Position numbers and translations under genes: made by a program. Below the pieces are notes generated by a model that saw only the letters and a list, made by a program, of their open reading frames with translations, made no database searches and was not told the origin of the DNA. From the NCBI GenBank assembly GCA_014728035.1, contig WJMJ01000151.1, forward strand, positions 1 to 37,327: DNA of 37,327 nt. The letters run 5' to 3'. The stretch's first letter is position 1; the number at the start of each line of letters is the position of its first letter. Below, one piece after another: positions 13,327 to 25,852 of this stretch. This DNA is from Promethearchaeota archaeon (GTDB lineage: Archaea > Asgardarchaeota > Thorarchaeia > Thorarchaeales > Thorarchaeaceae).

Positions 13327-14544
13327 GTGACATCTCAATCTGACAGAACCCATTTCAATCTATCAACTGACATTCCTCGCCATACTGAGATTATAGAGAT
13401 TGATTTGGGTTTTCTAAGAAAATATCCTAATTTGACTTCTGTAAAAATTAATCATGGTGAAAGACTAAAGCAACTAGATCTTCGAGTTTTAGGTCAGTGT
13501 AAAAAATTAAAAAAACTAGAGATATCTCATTTATGGAGTCTTAAAGAAATTAGTCTCGACCCACTTTCTGAGTGTTCAAGTCTACAAGAATTCAAATTAA
13601 ATTGGAATTCGAGTTTGAAAGAGTTAAATCTTCAACCCTTAGCGTCATGTAAGAATCTACAACATTTAGAGATAAGATGGAATGGAGCGCTTCGAGAACT
13701 CGACTTAGAACCATTAGCACATTGCAAACAATTACGGAGTTTTCAATTCACAAGATCAAGTCATCACCAAAGCACTAATCTCACTCCATTAGTTTGGTGT
13801 TCTAATCTACGAGAACTCCGAGTAGATGGTAATTCCCATGCTGATAGTATTCTAACTTTTCATCCCGCTATTCGGTCTTCTGATTTTAGTTGCAATCTAT
13901 TCTATCCATCGGTTCTCCTAAAGGAGTATGTTGAGAAAAATGGTTGGGGGTTACTTTTTTCTCTAATGAATGATGATATTTACTTGGACGATGTTTCTCT
14001 TATCCAGCTCCAATATCGGTGGTTTGCCGCTTTTGGATTAAATGAATTTGGGGTGTTCGATGGTGACATCCGTAAACAATTGGAGGCTATTCCAGATTCG
14101 TATAATTTTCAAGAGATTTTCAATCAGGTTAAGAAAAGAATTCAAAATTGTATGATTGAACAAATCAGGAATAACGGCCCTACAAGACATATGGATGTTG
14201 AGAAGCTTAAATCCTCTATTGGGGTCATCATGATTCCGCATATCGTGAGAAGAAGACGAGAGGAAATTGAAAATCTGGTTATCGCTAAAGAATATGATTT
14301 GTCAATAAAAGATAGATTTGATATCTCTCAGGAGTACTATGATTTAGGGCCTTTGTGGGTTACTCATTATGGCTATGAAATTCTCAGTGCGTTAGAGATG
14401 AATGTTGTTGCCAAAAAATATGAAATTGAAGAAATTAAGGACGCTCTTAGACGAATTGGTTTGGAAATCGAAATTGGGCCTAGATCAATTTATTCTGTAG
14501 AGATGTCCAAAGCAATGAAGGAGTATCTGGTGACCAAAAGATAG
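13327..14544 (+). CDS. Leucine-rich repeat protein
   Basis: About five to six ~25-aa repeats of L.ELDL.PL..C..L..L.L..N, followed by a helical C-terminal domain. Confidence 0.85.
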   Translation: MTSQSDRTHFNLSTDIPRHTEIIEIDLGFLRKYPNLTSVKINHGERLKQLDLRVLGQCKKLKKLEISHLWSLKEISLDPLSECSSLQEFKLNWNSSLKELNLQPLASCKNLQHLEIRWNGALRELDLEPLAHCKQLRSFQFTRSSHHQSTNLTPLVWCSNLRELRVDGNSHADSILTFHPAIRSSDFSCNLFYPSVLLKEYVEKNGWGLLFSLMNDDIYLDDVSLIQLQYRWFAAFGLNEFGVFDGDIRKQLEAIPDSYNFQEIFNQVKKRIQNCMIEQIRNNGPTRHMDVEKLKSSIGVIMIPHIVRRRREEIENLVIAKEYDLSIKDRFDISQEYYDLGPLWVTHYGYEILSALEMNVVAKKYEIEEIKDALRRIGLEIEIGPRSIYSVEMSKAMKEYLVTKR

Positions 14545-15349: not shown

Positions 15350-15409
15350 ATATATCTAATAGGTGGTTTGCAACTTTTGCAATTACCATTCGTGTAACCA
15401 CCTGGTGAT
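15350..15409 (+). promoter_or_regulatory. Putative promoter/operator region of GTPase module 1
   Basis: ATATATCTAATA at 15350-15361 (11/12 match upstream of module 2); inverted repeat AGGTGGTT 15361-15368 / AACCACCT 15396-15403; palindrome TTGCAA-CTT-TTGCAA at 15368-15382; SD GGTGAT at 15404-15409. Confidence 0.5.
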
Positions 15410-15413
15410 AAAT

Positions 15414-15959
15414 TTGACAAATGATTCCCCTAATATTGCGAAGTTATTACTTGTAGGCTCCGGTGGAGTTGGGAAAACCAGTCTCGCGTCAAGACTGGTT
15501 GGAGATAAATATGAAGAATCTCCCATGACGGTAGGGCTCGATATATCTACCTGTGAGCTTGAAGATAAAGAAGATGGATCAAAACTTAAGATTGTTACTT
15601 TTGACCTTGGAGGCCAGGAGCGTTTTCGCTCTTTCCAGAAAGATTTTTCTATTGGCTCTAAAATTTGTTTGGTAACGTTCGATCTCTCAAGATATAATTC
15701 ACTGCTCGAACTTGAAGAGTGGATTAGTTTTATTGATTGTATTCCAAAAGAAGGCCGTATTCTTGTAGGAAACAAATCAGATCTGTCTTGTGAAGTGTCA
15801 GATTCCGATATTGATGAAATTTCGAAGCGTTACAACATGCCTTGGCTAAAAGTAAGTTCAAAGACTGGTGAAAACATAGATAAATTGGAAGGGTTGATAA
15901 TTGAAACAATTAAATCCAGTAATGATTATTCAACCAGAATAGAAGAATTCCTGACTTGA
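15414..15959 (+). CDS. Small Ras-superfamily (Rab/Arf-like) GTPase, module 1
   Basis: G1 GSGGVGKTS, G2 MTVG, G3 DLGGQERFRS, G4 GNKSD, G5 VSSK. Start TTG 15414 follows GGTGAT. Confidence 0.92.
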   Translation: MTNDSPNIAKLLLVGSGGVGKTSLASRLVGDKYEESPMTVGLDISTCELEDKEDGSKLKIVTFDLGGQERFRSFQKDFSIGSKICLVTFDLSRYNSLLELEEWISFIDCIPKEGRILVGNKSDLSCEVSDSDIDEISKRYNMPWLKVSSKTGENIDKLEGLIIETIKSSNDYSTRIEEFLT

Positions 15960-15979
15960 GTTAAGAAATAGGTGATTAC

Positions 15980-16423
15980 TTGCCTTCGATTAAATTTACT
16001 TGTCCAATATGCAAACGTACGGAGACAATAGAAGTTAGTGAGGAAAAAATCCAAAGTGCAGAAAGAAATCCTGTTCCTGTTCTAATAACACACGGTTCTC
16101 CTGAACATGCTGTAACTGTTTTTATCGACAAGTCATTTAATGTAAGAGCTACAAGTGCTGCTGATATTATCCAACGTATTCAAGATACAGAATCTGCACC
16201 TCGGAAGTATACTCGAAGGCATGTACCGGTTCCAAAACAAACCAAAGTCCAACTTGATGATTTAGACTATGCTCAAGTTAAAATTGTAGCACTTGCTGAT
16301 GGAGATAAGAGTGTAGATGAACTTGCAGAAATCTTGGATATTCCTGCAATGAGATTGAAAATTCTCTGTGAACAATTAGTAAAAATGGAACGACTAGAAT
16401 CTGTAAAAACGGTGGTAGAATAG
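15980..16423 (+). CDS. Zn-ribbon (CxxC...H...H) plus C-terminal winged-helix protein, module 1
   Basis: FTCPICK...VPVLITHGSPEHAVTVFID; wHTH-like ADGDKSVDELAEILDIP...LCEQLVKM; AGGTGATT SD before TTG; paralog at 18940. Confidence 0.82.
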   Translation: MPSIKFTCPICKRTETIEVSEEKIQSAERNPVPVLITHGSPEHAVTVFIDKSFNVRATSAADIIQRIQDTESAPRKYTRRHVPVPKQTKVQLDDLDYAQVKIVALADGDKSVDELAEILDIPAMRLKILCEQLVKMERLESVKTVVE

Positions 16424-16424
16424 A

Positions 16425-17036
16425 ATGAAGAATTGGTTAATAATTCAAGCATCTAAGGCGAAAAAATTAGGAAGTGAAAAAGTAGTCACAATGACTCTGA
16501 CTAAACTAAACGACCTTCTAATGACAAGTCTTCTGGATATTGCTGGGCCTGAAAAGAGTCTTCAGACTGTGTTTGAAGGTGGAGTTCAGTTAGGTCATGA
16601 GTTTATGATGGAACTCTCAGCACATCTCGAACCTGATGAAAGTAGGATCCCCGCATATGGTGAGGCGGCATGGATTATGTTCTCCGGACACAAACCAACA
16701 GAACAGAATCTTGAGAATATAGAGATTGATGAGAAAGAAGCTTTCTTGTATACTTTTACGGATGATGATTCACCTTGGTGTCGGGATATTTCTTTTCCTC
16801 ATAAATTCTGTCAGTTCCCAGCGGGTGCATATCAAGGTGCAGCTCAGACTTGGAGTGTTCTTACTAGAGATGGTTATTATAATGTTCTTAGTCGTGAAAC
16901 AAAATGCAAAGCAGTGGGTGATGATTGCTGTGAATTCAAGGTATTTTTTGTCCCTCAGACTATAGATATCGCTAGAATGAAAGAACTATATCCCTCCTTA
17001 TTTGAAGAGATACCCACAGGATTTTCCGTATATTAG
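16425..17036 (+). CDS. V4R domain protein (Bet3/TRAPP/H-NOX fold), module 1
   Basis: FEGGVQLGHEF; FCQFPAGAYQG...RETKCKAVGDDCCEF matches the V4R C..G...G / E..C...G...C.F pattern. Start could be ATG 16491. Confidence 0.82.
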   Translation: MKNWLIIQASKAKKLGSEKVVTMTLTKLNDLLMTSLLDIAGPEKSLQTVFEGGVQLGHEFMMELSAHLEPDESRIPAYGEAAWIMFSGHKPTEQNLENIEIDEKEAFLYTFTDDDSPWCRDISFPHKFCQFPAGAYQGAAQTWSVLTRDGYYNVLSRETKCKAVGDDCCEFKVFFVPQTIDIARMKELYPSLFEEIPTGFSVY

Positions 17037-18256
17037 CGAAGCAAAGATTTCAAAACTGAGATTGGAGCACGTCTATAGACTTTACTCCGTGCTTCACCAT
17101 AACTCTTGAGTCCGATAATCATCTCTGCGGCTGCCTTACAAGTATCCTCATCTGATGCCATCATTTTAACTAATAGTTCCATTCTGCGAACCGATTTGTA
17201 GACGAGATTGGCCAATGGTAGACCTTTGTTGATAAGATCGTCTCCAAAATCTTCCATCCATTTTTCTTTGTAGATTGTTACTAGTTCATCATCCAATTGT
17301 CCATCAATATCCTCATGGATTGTTTCAGCAGCAATTCGACCAGTTGTAGTACCATAATAGAGACCTTCACCCGTAACTGGAGATACAAAGCCTCCTGCAT
17401 CGCCTATCAATAGGATATTACCGATTCCGGTGGGATCAAATGGTTTCTGAAATGGCACTGGATGAGTTTTCCTTGTACTACCATCAAAGTTTTCCGGCAC
17501 TACCCCTCTTTTCTTCAAGCTCGCGAGAAAAATATCGAATATTTCAAATTGGTTAATTGGTGGAGTTTCTTGGTTACTAAAACCTATGCCGATATTGAGA
17601 TACCCTCTTTTTGGAAAGACCCATCCATAGCCTCTTGGAACAACACCGAAATAAAGCTGAATTTTCCTCTTACCATCAAAATGATGATCTAATATACTGT
17701 CGTCAATAGGATTTTCCGCACACACGGTTCTAGCCATGTATTCATAGGGTTGGGTGAAACCTAATTTTTTCTTATAAGATCGAAGACCTGTACCATCTGC
17801 AATTACTACATATTTTGCTTTTACTGGGTCCTGGTCTTTGAAAAAAACTCTAATGAATGTCTTCTTCGGATCTATATCTTTGACCATAGTTTCTTCAAGA
17901 GTTTCTGCACCTGCATCTTTGGCGTCCACTAGAAGTGCATGGTCCCATTCAGTTCTAACTACAAGGTTAAGACATTCTTCACCTTCATAGTCAGCTTCCT
18001 GATAACTAGGTGAAAAGACAGTTAATCCTTCACTTTGGCAATTGATTGACTTTATACCTTTTGGACCAAGATTTATCTTTGTTCTTTCTGATAAAGCACC
18101 TCCACATGATTTGAATCGAGGGAATTTCGCTTTATCAACAAGTAAAACATCCAAACCTATTTTTGCTGCATGCATAGCACAGATACTACCAGCTGGACCA
18201 GCACCGACTATAACTAAATCCTTCAGGGTTTTTTGGCCTCCGGCATTAGAGGTCAC
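17033..18256 (-). CDS. Geranylgeranyl reductase family FAD-dependent oxidoreductase
   Basis: DLVIVGAGPAG, FPRFKSCGGAL, VVIADG, GYGWVFPK and LLIGDAGGFVSPVTGEGLYY. Confidence 0.9.
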   Translation of the reverse strand: MTSNAGGQKTLKDLVIVGAGPAGSICAMHAAKIGLDVLLVDKAKFPRFKSCGGALSERTKINLGPKGIKSINCQSEGLTVFSPSYQEADYEGEECLNLVVRTEWDHALLVDAKDAGAETLEETMVKDIDPKKTFIRVFFKDQDPVKAKYVVIADGTGLRSYKKKLGFTQPYEYMARTVCAENPIDDSILDHHFDGKRKIQLYFGVVPRGYGWVFPKRGYLNIGIGFSNQETPPINQFEIFDIFLASLKKRGVVPENFDGSTRKTHPVPFQKPFDPTGIGNILLIGDAGGFVSPVTGEGLYYGTTTGRIAAETIHEDIDGQLDDELVTIYKEKWMEDFGDDLINKGLPLANLVYKSVRRMELLVKMMASDEDTCKAAAEMIIGLKSYGEARSKVYRRAPISVLKSLLR

Positions 18257-18410
18257 AAACTACCTTATATTATCTTTGTGAGATTTCGTATTAAGGAATG
18301 ACAAACGAATTTTTTGAATTGAATTCAGACATAAGACACCATACATCTAATAATGCAGCTGAATGAACTGATAATGATTTAGAATTGGCATAAAAAAAGG
18401 AGACTCACTA

Positions 18411-18920
18411 ATGTCCAAAAAACCAAAACATGTGAAAATCGCTTTGGTTGGGTCTGGAGGTGTTGGAAAATCAACTTTGGCATCTCGATTGGTAACTGGC
18501 GATTTTGTTGATACCTCAATGACGGTAGGGATTTCTGTTGAAACTTGGACTATTGAAGAAGATGCATCGGGAGATTCCTACAAAGCAGTGGCTTTCGATC
18601 TAGGTGGGCAACAGCAATTCCGATTCTTTCAGGAATCAATGATTCAAGGTGCAAAGATTGCTCTGATAGTTTTCGACGTTAGTAGATTTGAAACTCTTAT
18701 GGGACTTGATGAATGGATTGAGATGACCGAGGGGATTCCAAGTTATCGCAGGATTCTTGTTGGGAATAAATTGGATTTGGGGATGTTGATTCCAGAAGGT
18801 GAGATTGTAAAAATAGCAGCAAAATGGAATATGCCTTGGGTTATAGTGAGTTCATCAAACGGAGAAAATTTTGATGATTTAGAGCAAAGGATTATTCAAG
18901 CAATTCGCTCAATAGAATAG
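18411..18920 (+). CDS. Small Ras-superfamily (Rab/Arf-like) GTPase, module 2
   Basis: G1 GSGGVGKST, G2 MTVG, G3 DLGGQQQFR, G4 GNKLD, degenerate G5 VSSS; AGGAGA SD. Confidence 0.92.
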   Translation: MSKKPKHVKIALVGSGGVGKSTLASRLVTGDFVDTSMTVGISVETWTIEEDASGDSYKAVAFDLGGQQQFRFFQESMIQGAKIALIVFDVSRFETLMGLDEWIEMTEGIPSYRRILVGNKLDLGMLIPEGEIVKIAAKWNMPWVIVSSSNGENFDDLEQRIIQAIRSIE

Positions 18921-18939
18921 TTGTGTAGGTAGTTTTACT

Positions 18940-19386
18940 TTGACTGAAGTTACGTTTACTTGTCCTATCTGTTCATCAGAGTTCAAGACTGAAATCGATG
19001 ATGATATGATACGTGAAGGAAAGACGAACCCTGTTCCTATCGTAATTCCACATGGTGATCCTGAACACGCTGTTACTGTCTTTATTGACAAGGAATATCG
19101 TTTAAGAGGAGTAAACCCACTTCAGTTTGTACATCGCTTTGAAGAAGTCAAGCTTGAAAGCAGAGATTATTTCAAATCTTACATTCCATTTCCCTTGGAG
19201 GAAGAAGTGAGTTTTAAAGGACTAGATAACAAGTTCATCACTATTCTTAATGTAGCTGATGGTCATAAGACAGTTGAAGATATTGCGGAGATAATCGATG
19301 AGAGTCCTTTTACTACTAGGATGATATCTTTGCTATTAGTACGAATGGGAAAACTAGATTCGCTAAGGACGGTGATGCGATCGTGA
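18940..19386 (+). CDS. Zn-ribbon plus winged-helix protein, module 2
   Basis: FTCPICS...NPVPIVIPHGDPEHAVTVFIDK; ADGHKTVEDIAEII...LLVRMGKL; colinear paralog of 15980..16423. Confidence 0.82.
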   Translation: MTEVTFTCPICSSEFKTEIDDDMIREGKTNPVPIVIPHGDPEHAVTVFIDKEYRLRGVNPLQFVHRFEEVKLESRDYFKSYIPFPLEEEVSFKGLDNKFITILNVADGHKTVEDIAEIIDESPFTTRMISLLLVRMGKLDSLRTVMRS

Positions 19387-19982
19387 GAGATTTTTTCTTA
19401 AGAAGTAGTTCTAAATCCAAGGAGGTCTTACGCTCTATTGTAGCAACAAAATATAACGAGATTCTTATGGAGAGCATGCTTGAGTTATTCTCATCAAATG
19501 AAGCTATTCAGAGAGTTTTCGAGAAGGGAGTACAACTTGGTCCAGAATTCTTAGCAGAACTTACACCACGACCAGATGATGAACTAGGAGCAATCAGAGA
19601 CTATGCTGAATTGGGCTGGGAACTTTTTGCTGGACATCGTCCAATTGCTATCTCATGGGAAAGGAAAAAATTGGGTGATATTCGACTTTGGATGTATGAA
19701 ATAAAAGATGATGACTGTCCATTTTGTAGAAATATGACAGCACCCTGCAAATTCTGTTATCTTCCTGCTGGTATTATCCAAGGAGCAGTACAAGCTTGGT
19801 CGAATTATCTCCATAATGGATCTTACAAAGCAATATGCAGAGAGACCTGCTGTTCTGCTATCGGAGATCCATATTGTCAATGGACTTTGATTCTAGTCCA
19901 GAGATTGACTGCAGCTGAAGACTTGGAATCTACACTTCCGGATATTTTCAATGAAATTCCAGCTTCATTTTCCACTTTCTAA
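19383..19982 (+). CDS. V4R domain protein (Bet3/TRAPP/H-NOX fold), module 2
   Basis: VFEKGVQLGPEF; CPFC...KFCYLPAGIIQG...RETCCSAIGDPYCQW; GTGA overlap with the upstream stop. Confidence 0.82.
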   Translation: MRDFFLRSSSKSKEVLRSIVATKYNEILMESMLELFSSNEAIQRVFEKGVQLGPEFLAELTPRPDDELGAIRDYAELGWELFAGHRPIAISWERKKLGDIRLWMYEIKDDDCPFCRNMTAPCKFCYLPAGIIQGAVQAWSNYLHNGSYKAICRETCCSAIGDPYCQWTLILVQRLTAAEDLESTLPDIFNEIPASFSTF

Positions 19983-25071: not shown

Positions 25072-25653
25072 CTAGCCAATAAATTTGTCACTTTCTTTTC
25101 CTTCCTCAGCATCTGACATCATTCGAAGAAGTTTCGTAAAAGCACCAACTACGTTCTCACCGGTCTTAGCTGAGGTCTCTACATACACGGCCGGAACTTC
25201 GAGTTTCTCCATGAAGTATTCTGTAAATTCTTCTCCTTCTTCAGTCGTAACTTCGTTATCCACAGTTCCTCTCAGGTCTATTTTGTTTGCAACAATTATT
25301 GTCGGCGGGAGCTTACCCATGTTCTTGTACGCTTCCACTAACCATTTACTCGCATTGTCAAATGATTCTCGATTGGTAATTGAGTATACAAGTACTATGC
25401 CATTACATCCTTGATAGTAATGTCCTCTTACTTTTTCAAATGTTGGCTGACCTGCCAAGTCCCATATAATGAATTTCACAACATCGCCATCAAATAAAAC
25501 ACGTTTTGTTGCAAGGTCTACACCAATTGTAGCTAAATGCCCCTCGATGAAATCTTCCCCGAGATAGTTTCTTCTTATACTGGTCTTTCCGACAGCACCA
25601 TCTCCAATCAGTACAGACTTCATAATCCGACTGCCATCGTCCTGATTTCTCAA
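25072..25653 (-). CDS. Rab-like small GTPase
   Basis: GDGAVGKTS, ATIGVDL, KFIIWDLAGQ, YYQGC, LVYSIT, ANKID and ETSAK. TTG 25653 lies 7 nt after GGAGG (25665-25661). Confidence 0.93.
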   Translation of the reverse strand: MRNQDDGSRIMKSVLIGDGAVGKTSIRRNYLGEDFIEGHLATIGVDLATKRVLFDGDVVKFIIWDLAGQPTFEKVRGHYYQGCNGIVLVYSITNRESFDNASKWLVEAYKNMGKLPPTIIVANKIDLRGTVDNEVTTEEGEEFTEYFMEKLEVPAVYVETSAKTGENVVGAFTKLLRMMSDAEEGKESDKFIG

Positions 25654-25852
25654 ACTATTTCCTCCATAGTTCATCAATAGCCTATATATTGAAAACATTT
25701 ACGGAAGTATATAACTTTGAACTATCTACTACTCGAGTACCATTGCATGCGGAAATTGAATCAGCTGTTCTACACAAACAATGTTTATACTTTTCTTCTA
25801 GTATTATCATGTTAATGCTTTCAAACAAGCAGATGTTGAGGGATAGTATCCA

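Follow-up and report, generated by a model that had tools for sequence, protein, structure and literature searches.

The analyzed window, a stretch of 37,327 nt from a Promethearchaeota archaeon of the Thorarchaeia (contig WJMJ01000151.1), contains two intact, ordered three-gene triads (positions 15363/15414–17036 and 18411–19982, by an ORF check of the window), each of which encodes a small GTPase, a zinc-module/winged-helix (Zn/wHTH) adaptor and a V4R-type protein, in that order. The reading that we put forward, tentatively and as a nearly even call, is that of a GTPase switch that senses a ligand and is connected with the reduction of prenyl lipids, in which the GTPase was added to an older adaptor–V4R unit tied to a gene of the geranylgeranyl-reductase (GGR) family. 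This reading draws on observed gene order, conservation, folds, conserved residues and neighborhood statistics, and the features concerned are listed in Table 1.

Table 1. Features of the two triads and the gene between them (positions in the window)
Feature	Position	Strand	Remarks
Small Ras-like GTPase 1	15363 (GTG) or 15414 (TTG) to 15959	+	198 aa or 181 aa; Pfam Ras 2.3e-26
Adaptor 1 (Zn/wHTH)	15980–16423	+	CCHH module and DUF742-like winged helix; AF2 model
V4R/Bet3-fold protein 1, long type	16425–17036	+	203 aa; AF2 model, Foldseek
GGR-family flavoenzyme gene	17033–18256	−	407 aa; TIGR02032
Small Ras-like GTPase 2	18411–18920	+	169 aa; Pfam Ras 3.3e-23
Adaptor 2	18940–19386	+	148 aa; architecture same as adaptor 1
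V4R/Bet3-fold protein 2	19383–19982	+	199 aa; start overlaps adaptor 2 stop by 4 nt

The GTPase–adaptor and adaptor–V4R junctions measure +20 and +1 nt in triad 1 and +19 and –4 nt in triad 2, in exact agreement with the tight, duplicated module described in the earlier note. As that note had also stated, the copies are diverged yet intact: between triads, BLASTP identity was 48% for the GTPases (E = 5e-57), 36% for the adaptors (E = 5e-40) and 35% for the V4R proteins (E = 2e-50). The motifs on which it relied were recovered as well, namely G1–G5 in both GTPases, GQERFRS in GTPase 1, the CPIC...HGxPEHAVTVFID motif (as C-x2-C...HGxPEHAVTVFID) in both adaptors and the cysteines C129, C161 and C169 in both V4R proteins. 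Its statement that Roadblock and longin genes are missing held true for the window, where a scan of the neighbors found neither; the 14 Roadblock/LC7 matches above the Pfam cut-off in this genome all lie on other contigs. The conserved minus-strand gene at 17033–18256, the genome-specific duplication and the presence of TRAPPC3-like genes elsewhere are points absent from the earlier note.

Both GTPases belong to the Ras superfamily (Pfam Ras, 92.8 and 82.5 bits for GTPases 1 and 2, cut-off 21.6; TIGR00231, 60.2 and 57.8 bits, cut-off 42.5, with E = 2e-16 for GTPase 1) and contain G1 GxGGVGK(T/S), the switch-I Thr, DLGGQ, NKxD and an SS(K/S) G5, motifs that are invariant in the alignment. The Rab family is defined by C-terminal prenylatable cysteines together with the full RabF motif set, a definition reportedly due to Pereira-Leal and Seabra. 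Upon sequence inspection, C-terminal Cys residues were absent from both GTPases, and the RabF match was partial (FDLGGQERFRSF instead of WDTAGQERFRSIT), while the best solved relatives of GTPase 1 in the PDB were Rab1B and Sec4 (E about 1e-21); judged by sequence, the window GTPases are therefore Rab-like only, falling outside the Rab family proper. The start codon of GTPase 1 is ambiguous: GGTGA precedes the TTG at 15414, and the longer form is found in the gene caller's record and in the orthologue of genome G336. A GGAG ribosome-binding site lies upstream of GTPase 2. In the phylogenetic tree, the two GTPases form one clade with the C151 GTPase (support 97/93). The genome contains 38 Ras-like GTPase genes, and such genes lie directly upstream of five of the nine Zn-module genes. 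In the tree of 35 rows, the five all fall into a single group of 8 rows, a degree of clustering that was reached by 0 of 500 label shuffles, and the Roadblock-adjacent GTPases of the genome fall outside this group, so that the two form separate sets.

Adaptor 1 (AF2 model, pLDDT 92.7) consists of a CCHH zinc-ribbon-like module (residues 1–66), a basic linker and a winged helix (about residues 80–147). Residues C8, C11, H38, H43, D50 and R56 are invariant or nearly so, and adaptor 2 retains the CCHH, D and R residues. The model places C8/C11 between the first and second strands and H38/H43 between the third and fourth; a zinc ribbon was taken to require two beta-hairpin knuckles with two metal ligands each. 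With the putative zinc module as part of the adaptor model, the closest named Atlas cluster was Zn_ribbon_21 (TM 0.56). The module occurs Asgard-wide and matches no Pfam family; in the Loki-type family f22 it is promiscuous, with a GTPase neighbor in only 3 of the 30 top loci and DEAD-box helicases beside others, and the link between zinc module and GTPase is thus subfamily-specific. The winged helix resembles those of Nprl2/3, Lrp and MarR (Z 7–8 in structure comparison). Against DUF742 (PF05331, cut-off 27), adaptor 1 scored 19.6–21.4 bits and adaptor 2 gave no match in the Pfam search; nine of 33 adaptor family members matched at E ≤ 0.01 (best 1.5e-7), precomputed DUF742 matches exist for an 84% identical orthologue and for the adaptor at locus L114, and the match is confined to the winged helix. 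The winged helices of the Thor triads are acidic to neutral (pI 4.4–6.8), more in keeping with a protein-binding than with a DNA-binding role, and those of distant relatives are basic (pI 9–10), which fits DNA binding there.

We compared the AF2 model of V4R 1 (pLDDT 86.7, pTM 0.82) with the PDB using Foldseek and obtained 64 matches at E ≤ 0.001, the top ones being all TRAPPC3/Bet3, Thor-TRAPPC3, MopR, PoxR or DmpR; TRAPPC3/Bet3, Thor-TRAPPC3 and MopR/PoxR were each matched at E ≤ 3e-6. The model agreed better with TRAPPC3/Bet3 (E 4e-8 to 1e-6, rmsd 3.0–3.6 Å, TM by target 0.69–0.74) than with MopR/PoxR (rmsd about 6 Å, TM about 0.52). The third protein of the triad is accordingly modeled with the two-layer alpha/beta V4R/Bet3 fold. 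Both copies scored below the cut-off of 31 bits for Pfam V4R (PF02830), at 21.6 bits for V4R 1 (2.4e-4) and 22.5 bits for V4R 2 (1.2e-4), and 27 of 30 relatives matched this family at E ≤ 0.01; the window proteins are therefore divergent members of the V4R superfamily. For the TRAPP family (PF04051, cut-off 27), V4R 2 reached 15.7 bits (E = 0.012) and V4R 1 had no match. Conserved residues are C129, E158, C161, C169, P190 and F193, the first four of which were checked in both copies, and the triad V4R proteins are of a long type with a conserved C-terminal tail that is absent from short TRAPPC3-like forms. A profile of triad-type V4R (A5) detected MopR with E = 0.0096 and Thor-TRAPPC3 with E = 0.09–0.58, and eukaryotic TRAPPC3 was not found by this profile. 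Judged by sequence profile, the triad V4R is not nearer to TRAPPC3 than it is to MopR, a phenol sensor of bacteria, and it is not of the TRAPPC3-like subfamily. Only two genes pass the curated TRAPP model genome-wide, both on contig C44; these are the genome's counterparts of Thor-TRAPPC3 (E = 1.6e-21), and each follows a larger DUF742-like wHTH gene and has no GTPase neighbor. All four V4R/TRAPP genes of the genome that were found by profile follow a gene with this wHTH. Relatives of V4R bind hydrophobic ligands: TRAPPC3 binds palmitate, and PoxR binds phenols (PMC10933270).

The order and spacing of the triad are retained in eight of nine related loci, which represent seven Thor genera and a second Asgard family, and the Thor adaptor–V4R junctions range from –4 to +1 nt; the gene-neighborhood survey that had been proposed as a check thus supports a conserved, tightly coupled unit. 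Only 9 of the family's 86 genomes showed a clear adaptor orthologue (E ≤ 1e-45). The adaptor gene also precedes a long-type V4R gene (E 1e-41 to 1e-47 with the A5 profile) in distant archaeal lineages, with no GTPase gene at the locus, and the GTPase looks like an add-on to an older adaptor–V4R pair. The gene between the triads is a member of the GGR family (TIGR02032 GG-red-SF, 211.6 bits, cut-off 158.8), and no equivalog cut-off was reached among the DGGGPL reductase, ChlP and MenJ models. It converges on triad 1, which it overlaps by 4 nt, and is transcribed away from triad 2, with a spacer of 154 nt between them. A GGR-family gene adjoins the V4R gene in eight of nine related loci; in family f8 it is co-directional and scores 209.8 bits against TIGR02032. 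A GGR-like gene (28–30% identical, E 1e-38 to 1e-46) likewise adjoins the pair at loci L108, L110/111, L112 and L113, of which L112 has all four components in a different order and a GTPase outside the triad clade. Pairs lacking a GGR neighbor occur at L106, at L114 and on contig C44; in family f14 a short V4R pair lies beside an HMG-CoA reductase gene, and at L022 the adaptor is near a PAP2 gene. The GGR-family gene is the most consistently linked neighbor and is part of the conserved unit, not a spacer. In the literature searched, we found no description of the GTPase–adaptor–V4R triad, and its presentation as an undescribed system stands to that extent, with a gene order conserved in the loci mentioned above.

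Triad 2 occurs in this genome only. Its adaptor and V4R branches are long (1.95 against a median of 0.45, and 2.45 against a median of 0.28, respectively), and the distances between the two triads are 0.89 for the GTPases, 1.28 for the adaptors and 1.29 for the V4R proteins, compared with 0.76 (adaptor) and 0.60 (V4R) for orthologues in other genera. As a paralogue, triad 2 is either old or imported, and its adaptor and V4R have evolved rapidly. Because adaptor 2 and V4R 2 changed together and GTPase 2 did not, a second ligand or partner specificity is suggested.

In the preferred reading, the older unit would be formed by the Zn-ribbon/winged-helix adaptor and the long-type V4R, whose genes appear translationally coupled and whose products are probably a stoichiometric pair. 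The V4R protein, putatively zinc-stabilized and with a likely hydrophobic pocket, would most likely sense a hydrophobic, possibly isoprenoid, ligand. In Thorarchaeota and in at least one other Asgard family, the gene immediately before the pair codes for a dedicated Ras-like GTPase, whose subfamily is habitually followed by zinc-module genes in this genome. We infer all physical contacts, the ligand, the GEF and GAP roles and the output: the adaptor may act as a bridge, with its zinc module toward the GTPase and its winged helix toward V4R, and the adaptor/V4R pair may set the nucleotide state of the GTPase by ligand occupancy. V4R would hold the place of the Roadblock protein (GAP) or the sensor kinase in a conservon, and the output would probably be the neighboring GGR-family enzyme or the state of the membrane lipids. 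For the GTPase MfpB, the role of GEF has been reported for MfpC (DUF742) and that of GAP for MfpD (Roadblock) (PMC11343762). Given this precedent and the DUF742-like winged helix, the adaptor would be a better candidate exchange factor than V4R, to which the earlier note had assigned that role; as the window adaptors score below the DUF742 cut-off, the analogy with MfpC amounts to weak homology of the winged helix only. It is improbable, in our estimate, that the adaptor and the Bet3-fold protein together represent a new class of GEF and/or GAP that serves a subfamily of Asgard Ras/Rab-like GTPases. Were this so, Bet3-fold proteins and small GTPases would already have worked together in archaea before TRAPP arose, under the control of a lipid-type ligand and with a link to the saturation of membrane lipids.

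Three other explanations were weighed. In the proto Rab-TRAPP switch of the earlier note, V4R would be a GEF acting directly on the Rab-like GTPase, with the Zn/wHTH protein as effector or GAP, and the triad would be a forerunner of TRAPP–Rab1. The V4R/Bet3 fold and the Rab-like character of the GTPase stand, and the better superposition of the V4R model on Bet3/TRAPPC3 than on MopR/PoxR, the Rab1 and Sec4 matches, the conserved gene order and the tail of the long-type V4R are consistent with the proposal; in the TRAPP–Ypt1 structure 3CUE, the Bet3 C-terminus reportedly contributes to Ypt1 activation. However, the sequence is not TRAPPC3-like, the A5 profile places it no closer to TRAPPC3 than to MopR, and only the two genes on contig C44, which have no GTPase neighbor, score above the cut-off of the curated TRAPP model. 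The longin subunits Bet5/Trs23 make up most of the catalytic surface of TRAPP, and neither the window nor the neighborhood contains a longin-type subunit; the combination of longin-type (Bet5/Trs23/Trs20) and Bet3-type subunits that characterizes the TRAPP complex was not found in the window. There was also no Sybindin or Sedlin_N match in the genome, which argues only weakly for a genome-wide absence since the Sybindin control matched nowhere. In addition, the adaptor–V4R pair predates its association with the GTPase, and the GTPases lack the Rab prenylation cysteines. We consider this explanation quite unlikely, and the triad resembles a GTPase switch that senses a ligand and is tied to lipid chemistry more than it resembles an ancestor of the eukaryotic Rab-TRAPP system.

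Less remote, though still doubtful, is a ligand-responsive transcription unit, a split version of V4R regulators such as MsvR, MopR and PoxR, in which the Zn/wHTH protein would bind DNA, V4R would be a separate ligand-sensing subunit, both would control the adjacent GGR gene, and the GTPase would be a lineage-specific modulator or merely co-transcribed. The winged-helix fold is close to Lrp/AsnC/MarR regulators (Z 7.0–7.4), but Nprl2/3, whose winged helices do not bind DNA, are also among the best matches by structure, and the basic pI of distant family members contrasts with the acidic to neutral pI of the Thor triads. GGR-like genes are adjacent in several lineages, with a divergent, regulator–target-like arrangement at L108, at L112 and between triad 2 and the GGR gene here; nevertheless, comparison of the two upstream regions revealed no common inverted repeat or operator. 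The existence of the pair without a GTPase gene, a weak match of V4R 2 to the V4R part of MsvR and the MopR sensor domain as the best profile match of the triad V4R also argue for such a unit, which would not account for the close and conserved linkage with a dedicated GTPase subfamily. Alternatively, and very improbably, the genes would form an accessory unit of the enzyme with no signaling, in which V4R carries or presents a prenyl substrate to the GGR-family reductase, the Zn/wHTH protein is a scaffold and the GTPase controls assembly or recruitment to the membrane. BchJ, a V4R protein, is considered a substrate carrier in bacteriochlorophyll synthesis, GGR-like genes are co-directional with and nearly abut the pair at L110/111, at L113 and in family f8, and the HMG-CoA reductase and PAP2 neighbors in f14 and L022 point in the same direction, as does lipid binding by Bet3-fold proteins (PMC10933270). 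However, the Thor GGR gene is convergent and hence not co-transcribed with triad 1, some pairs (L106, L114 and those on contig C44) have no GGR neighbor, and winged helices and GTPases are without known precedent as GGR accessories.

Among known systems, MglA–MglB and other Roadblock/longin–GTPase pairs share with the triad a small GTPase gene beside presumed regulators; unlike these and the Asgard operon of Roadblock, Rab-like GTPase and DENN (Liu et al., 10.1101/2020.10.19.343400), the triad has no Roadblock, longin or DENN protein. The actinobacterial conservon/mycobacterial Mfp operon (CvnA–D; MfpB GTPase, MfpC, MfpD and MfpE kinase) is similar in that a small Ras-superfamily GTPase, a small DUF742-type winged-helix protein and a third small regulatory protein are encoded in a tight operon with paralogous copies per genome. 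In other Asgard families, and only there, the adaptor gene follows a Roadblock gene, as CvnC follows CvnB. A conservon comprises a kinase, a Roadblock protein, a DUF742 protein and an MglA-type GTPase, whereas the triad has no adjacent histidine kinase or Roadblock gene, has V4R in the place of Roadblock and differs in gene order; its GTPase is Ras/Rab-like by Pfam and PDB, not Group 2 MglA, and its adaptor, below the DUF742 cut-off in the window, has an extra putative CCHH zinc module that is absent from CvnC. Thor-TRAPPC3 (PDB 7YH2, 7YH3; Tran et al. 2024, PMC10933270) and Bet3/TRAPPC3 share with the triad V4R the fold (Foldseek E about 1e-6 to 4e-8), a putative zinc site of conserved Cys residues and a likely hydrophobic pocket. 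The triad V4R nevertheless forms a distinct, longer subfamily with a C-terminal tail, whose A5 profile barely detects Thor-TRAPPC3, and unlike eukaryotic TRAPP the triad lacks longin subunits. The MopR sensor domain is the best PDB profile match (E = 0.0096 over the whole domain; Foldseek E about 6e-7), and the C...E-x2-C-x7-C zinc-site pattern aligns. MopR, PoxR, DmpR and MsvR resemble the triad in combining V4R with a DNA-binding-type domain, whereas in the triad there is no AAA+ domain, V4R and an acidic wHTH are separate proteins, and a GTPase is attached.

The open reading frames confirmed two ordered triads, as claimed in the earlier note, each consisting of a small Ras-like GTPase gene, an adaptor gene (encoding a CCHH zinc module and a DUF742-like winged helix) and a V4R gene; the junction gaps of +20, +1, +19 and -4 nt were likewise correct. 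All six genes are diverged yet intact (48, 36 and 35% identity between copies for the GTPase, adaptor and V4R protein, respectively). Alignment upheld the motifs that had been named: all G motifs are kept in both GTPases, a C-x2-C...HGxPEH motif is common to both middle proteins, and both V4R proteins share the cysteines C129, C161 and C169 together with E158. The reported lack of Roadblock and longin genes also holds for the window, and 0 of the 14 Roadblock genes of the genome lie on this contig.

Coordinates of the triad genes and of associated features in the window, on contig C44 of the same genome and at the distant locus L110
Feature	Position	Strand	Support or description
Triad 1 GTPase	15363/15414-15959	+	ORF; curated Ras and small_GTP models passed
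Triad 1 Zn/wHTH adaptor	15980-16423	+	ORF
Triad 1 V4R protein	16425-17036	+	ORF
Triad 2 GTPase	18411-18920	+	ORF; curated Ras and small_GTP models passed
Triad 2 Zn/wHTH adaptor	18940-19386	+	ORF
Triad 2 V4R protein	19383-19982	+	ORF
Cys/His-rich extension of GTPase 1	15363-15413		17 residues, C-x2-C-x4-C-x-H, if the start is GTG 15363
Leucine-rich-repeat (LRR) protein	13327-14544	+	405 aa; directly upstream of triad 1
Geranylgeranyl-reductase family (GGR) gene	17033-18256	-	
Third small GTPase	25072-25698	-	208 aa; Pfam Ras 6e-42
Duplicated pair: DUF742-like-wHTH protein, then short TRAPPC3-like protein	C44:60561-65540 (L039:2062-7040)		
Long-type V4R protein of one distant lineage	L110:4497-5153		

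The host is a Thorarchaeote; in its closest relative, a Thorarchaeota MAG, the orthologues are 84-86% identical and are annotated as consecutive 'hypothetical protein' genes. The genome assembly is 97.9% complete and 8.5% contaminated; the contig is syntenic with that of the same-genus Thorarchaeota relative (G336), which argues against contamination as the source of the window itself. The possible GTPase 1 extension is partly kept in the same-genus orthologue and the LRR gene is kept in the same-genus relative (66% identical); neither is kept in other genera. No shared operator was found in the two triad upstream regions, where only weak AT-rich repeats precede triad 1 and none precede triad 2.

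A search for related loci with one alignment (A1) yielded only four close Thorarchaeota/Promethearchaeota MAG contigs. Gene neighbourhoods were compared, as the earlier note had proposed, and the three genes kept their order in 8 of the 9 related loci, which come from seven genera of Thor and a single further Asgard family. In 8/9 of the related loci, the V4R gene also neighbors an orthologue of the GGR gene, which is convergent with it in Thor (4-nt overlap) and co-directional in family f8. This gene scored 211.6 bits against TIGR02032 (cut-off 158.8) and reached no equivalog cut-off, so that it is assigned to the geranylgeranyl-reductase family at family level. Full-length adaptor relatives at greater distance (about 25% identity), among them one named Thermofilum/Infirmifilum protein, mostly keep the pair: a verified long-type V4R gene (profile E 1e-41 to 1e-47) follows the adaptor gene in 5/7 distant clusters examined. 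A GGR-like gene (28-30% identical to that of the window, E 1e-38 to 1e-46) is adjacent in 4 of these 5, co-directional with the pair in L110/111 and L113 and divergent in L108 and L112. The conserved core thus consists of the adaptor and the long V4R protein, frequently accompanied by a GGR-like gene. To this core the GTPase seems to have been added, perhaps more than once; L112 shows a fourth arrangement (GGR-like, adaptor, V4R, Ras GTPase) with a GTPase outside the triad clade. The L110 V4R protein contains none of the zinc-site cysteines, and three protoglobin genes flank the GGR-adaptor-V4R set there.

Variants were observed in other Asgard families, namely Roadblock-adaptor, LarA-like-adaptor-short V4R-HMG-CoA reductase and GTPase-long adaptor sets. 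In families f20 and f21 (L018, L019 and L022), a Roadblock/LC7 gene (Pfam 1e-7 to 3e-3) lies directly before the adaptor gene, and in L022 a PAP2 lipid phosphatase gene lies upstream. The f14 loci (L028-L036 and L038) encode a LarA-like nickel racemase homologue (431 aa), the adaptor, a short V4R protein (169 aa) and HMG-CoA reductase; this set is another tie of the adaptor-V4R pair to isoprenoid metabolism. In f28 (L025-L027), a GTPase is followed by a long adaptor form of about 328 aa, whose C-terminal 180 residues matched no family, and then by a 90-aa protein consisting of the zinc module alone.

The adaptor was modeled with AF2 on a 33-sequence alignment (pLDDT 92.7). The model predicts an N-terminal module (residues 3-71, beta-beta-alpha-beta-beta-beta-alpha), a basic linker and a winged helix (residues 80-147). 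C8, C11, H38, H43, D50 and R56 are invariant or nearly so, and the pattern of C8, C11, H38 and H43 fits a putative CCHH zinc-ribbon-like site. Foldseek returned no match to the whole model at E <= 0.001, and VIA-align matched only the winged helix, for which Nprl2/3, Lrp and MarR winged helices were tied by the rule of the tool (Z 7-8). The window adaptors scored 19.6-21.4 bits against DUF742, below the cut-off of 27, and 9 of the 33 adaptor relatives matched this family (best E 1.5e-7). An exhaustive profile search collected 161 representatives, many of which share just the N-terminal module, set in other architectures; no GTPase, V4R or Roadblock domain was found in ten longer module-bearing proteins. 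The module occurs in 396/400 Asgard genomes, with 7-33 copies per genome in a Loki-type family; among the named Atlas clusters, a zinc ribbon from bacteria comes closest to it. Such a widespread Asgard domain without a Pfam family merits its own description.

Within the genome of the window, 5 of 9 zinc-module genes directly follow a Ras-like GTPase gene, of which there are 38, and the four V4R/TRAPP genes found by profile all follow a gene with an adaptor-type winged helix. This pattern suggests that the zinc module pairs with the GTPase, and the winged helix with the V4R protein. A 35-row tree gathers the five module-linked GTPases in a group of 8 rows (0/500 shuffles as clustered) and leaves the Roadblock-adjacent GTPases outside it; both triad GTPases form a clade with the GTPase of C151 (support 97/93). 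A family-wide link between zinc module and GTPase was rejected, since in family f22 only 3 of the 30 top module loci had a GTPase neighbor. Several f22 loci adjoin DEAD-box helicases, and the zinc module therefore also pairs with non-GTPase NTPases; in L061, L062, L075 and L081, a zinc-module protein of ~100 aa precedes a same-strand DEAD-box helicase gene (Pfam-confirmed in the last three). The third small GTPase of the window is more Rab-like than the triad GTPases and belongs to a different clade; its 72% identical orthologue lies directly upstream of the triad in another genome (G315, L094).

The V4R/Bet3 fold that had been assigned to the third protein was borne out by an AF2 model (pLDDT 86.7, pTM 0.82). 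With Foldseek, this model matched TRAPPC3/Bet3 (E 4e-8 to 1e-6, rmsd 3.0-3.6 A, TM by target up to 0.74), Thor-TRAPPC3 (7YH3, E 6e-7) and the bacterial sensors MopR, PoxR and DmpR (E about 6e-7, rmsd about 6 A). The sequence comparison differs in emphasis: a profile of 24 long-type proteins of about 200 aa matched MopR best (E 0.0096) and Thor-TRAPPC3 only at E 0.09-0.58, and found no eukaryotic TRAPPC3. The strong TRAPPC3 signal of a broader V4R alignment came from short forms of 157-169 aa (E 1.6e-21 for Thor-TRAPPC3, about 2e-7 for eukaryotic TRAPPC3; Pfam TRAPP 33.8 and 44.4 bits). On contig C44, winged-helix-ending proteins of 304 and 327 aa are followed by TRAPPC3-like proteins of 169 and 157 aa, both above the Pfam TRAPP cut-off; a 182-aa V4R protein follows the two pairs, and no GTPase gene is adjacent. 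It is these short forms that truly correspond, in this genome, to the crystallised Thor-TRAPPC3; that type therefore also has a winged-helix partner gene. Because the TRAPPC3 signal belongs to the short forms, the triad V4R protein constitutes a subfamily of its own, which is longer and has a conserved tail at its C-terminus (P190, F193 and G199).

Only this genome carries the second triad, and none of the other loci examined contains two; the same-genus relative carries a single triad in the order LRR-GTPase-adaptor-V4R-GGR...EamA-CopA. A recent tandem duplication was rejected as its origin, because each of the three trees joins triad 1 to the G336 orthologue and leaves triad 2 outside (support 92/90, 96/99 and 97/99). 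The branches of adaptor 2 (1.95) and V4R 2 (2.45) are long against medians of 0.45 and 0.28, whereas that of GTPase 2 is not (0.81). Between triads, the distances are 0.89 for the GTPases, 1.28 for the adaptors and 1.29 for the V4R proteins, the last two being about twice those to other-genus orthologues. Distance matrices of the GTPase, adaptor, V4R and GGR genes all correlated at r 0.86-0.97, which is non-discriminating because shared phylogeny produces such correlation. Triad 2 and the GGR gene diverge from a 154-nt spacer, and no composition anomaly was found around the triad. We regard triad 2 as a paralogue, either old or imported, in which adaptor and V4R protein shifted specificity jointly.

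We tentatively favor, at somewhat less than even chances, a ligand-sensing GTPase switch that was added to an older unit of adaptor and V4R protein, itself tied to prenyl reduction. Complex prediction for the three triad 1 proteins (alignments A4, A2 and A5; adaptor scored) gave an ipSAE of 0.01, which weighs neither for nor against a complex. That the ancestral adaptor-V4R pair was a transcription regulator is rather unlikely, although plausible from the winged helices of distant relatives, with pI values of 9-10; those of the Thor triad proteins are acidic (pI 4.4-6.8), which argues against direct DNA binding in the triads. We give a small chance to the proto-TRAPP reading of the earlier note, in which the V4R protein acts with a Rab-like GTPase. 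Its structural part stands, in that the predicted fold resembles Bet3/TRAPPC3 and the C-terminal tail is suggestive; however, longin partners and TRAPPC3-level sequence similarity are lacking. An enzyme-accessory role is the least probable of these readings. Compared with them, the GTPase switch on an adaptor-V4R base remains our preferred account.

Asgard archaea have dozens of small GTPases that resemble those of eukaryotes, and we know of no established regulators for them. The earlier suggestion that the triad is an undescribed system agrees with the literature searched, in which no description of the cassette was found. Tran et al. (2024) solved the structures of Thor-Rab and Thor-TRAPPC3, and noted that the GTPase genes of MK-D1 as a rule share no operon with genes for Roadblock, longin or TRAPPC3 proteins and that a lack of operons hinders matching GTPases to GAPs or GEFs from genome layout (PMC10933270). 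Liu et al. described ESCRT and Roadblock-GTPase-DENN operons, in a main text without V4R or TRAPP (10.1101/2020.10.19.343400), Podar et al. (2008) mention neither operons nor GTPases, and newer Asgard papers contained, on this subject, only citations of Tran et al. The cassette is an exception, offering candidate cognate partners (the zinc-module/winged-helix adaptor and the Bet3-fold protein) for one GTPase subfamily; it points to a prenyl-reductase gene as physiological context, and a single genome provides, for cross-pairing tests, two copies that have diverged and are naturally insulated. Three points are new here: the adaptor-V4R-GGR core occurs in lineages that have no GTPase at the locus, triad-type and TRAPPC3-type V4R proteins are distinct within one genome, and the second copy is unique and has diverged asymmetrically. 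Because the TRAPPC3-like genes of this genome lie elsewhere, not every Asgard V4R protein should be read as a TRAPP ancestor.

Among known systems, the LRR protein beside the Roc/Ras-like GTPase of triad 1 recalls ROCO proteins. DUF742 is the CvnC/MfpC component of the actinobacterial conservon; in its mycobacterial version, the GTPase MfpB reportedly has MfpC for its GEF and MfpD, a Roadblock protein, for its GAP (PMC11343762; PMC4316618). By analogy with MfpC, the adaptor is the more likely candidate for the exchange factor. The Roadblock-adaptor order of L018, L019 and L022 mirrors CvnB-CvnC of the conservon.
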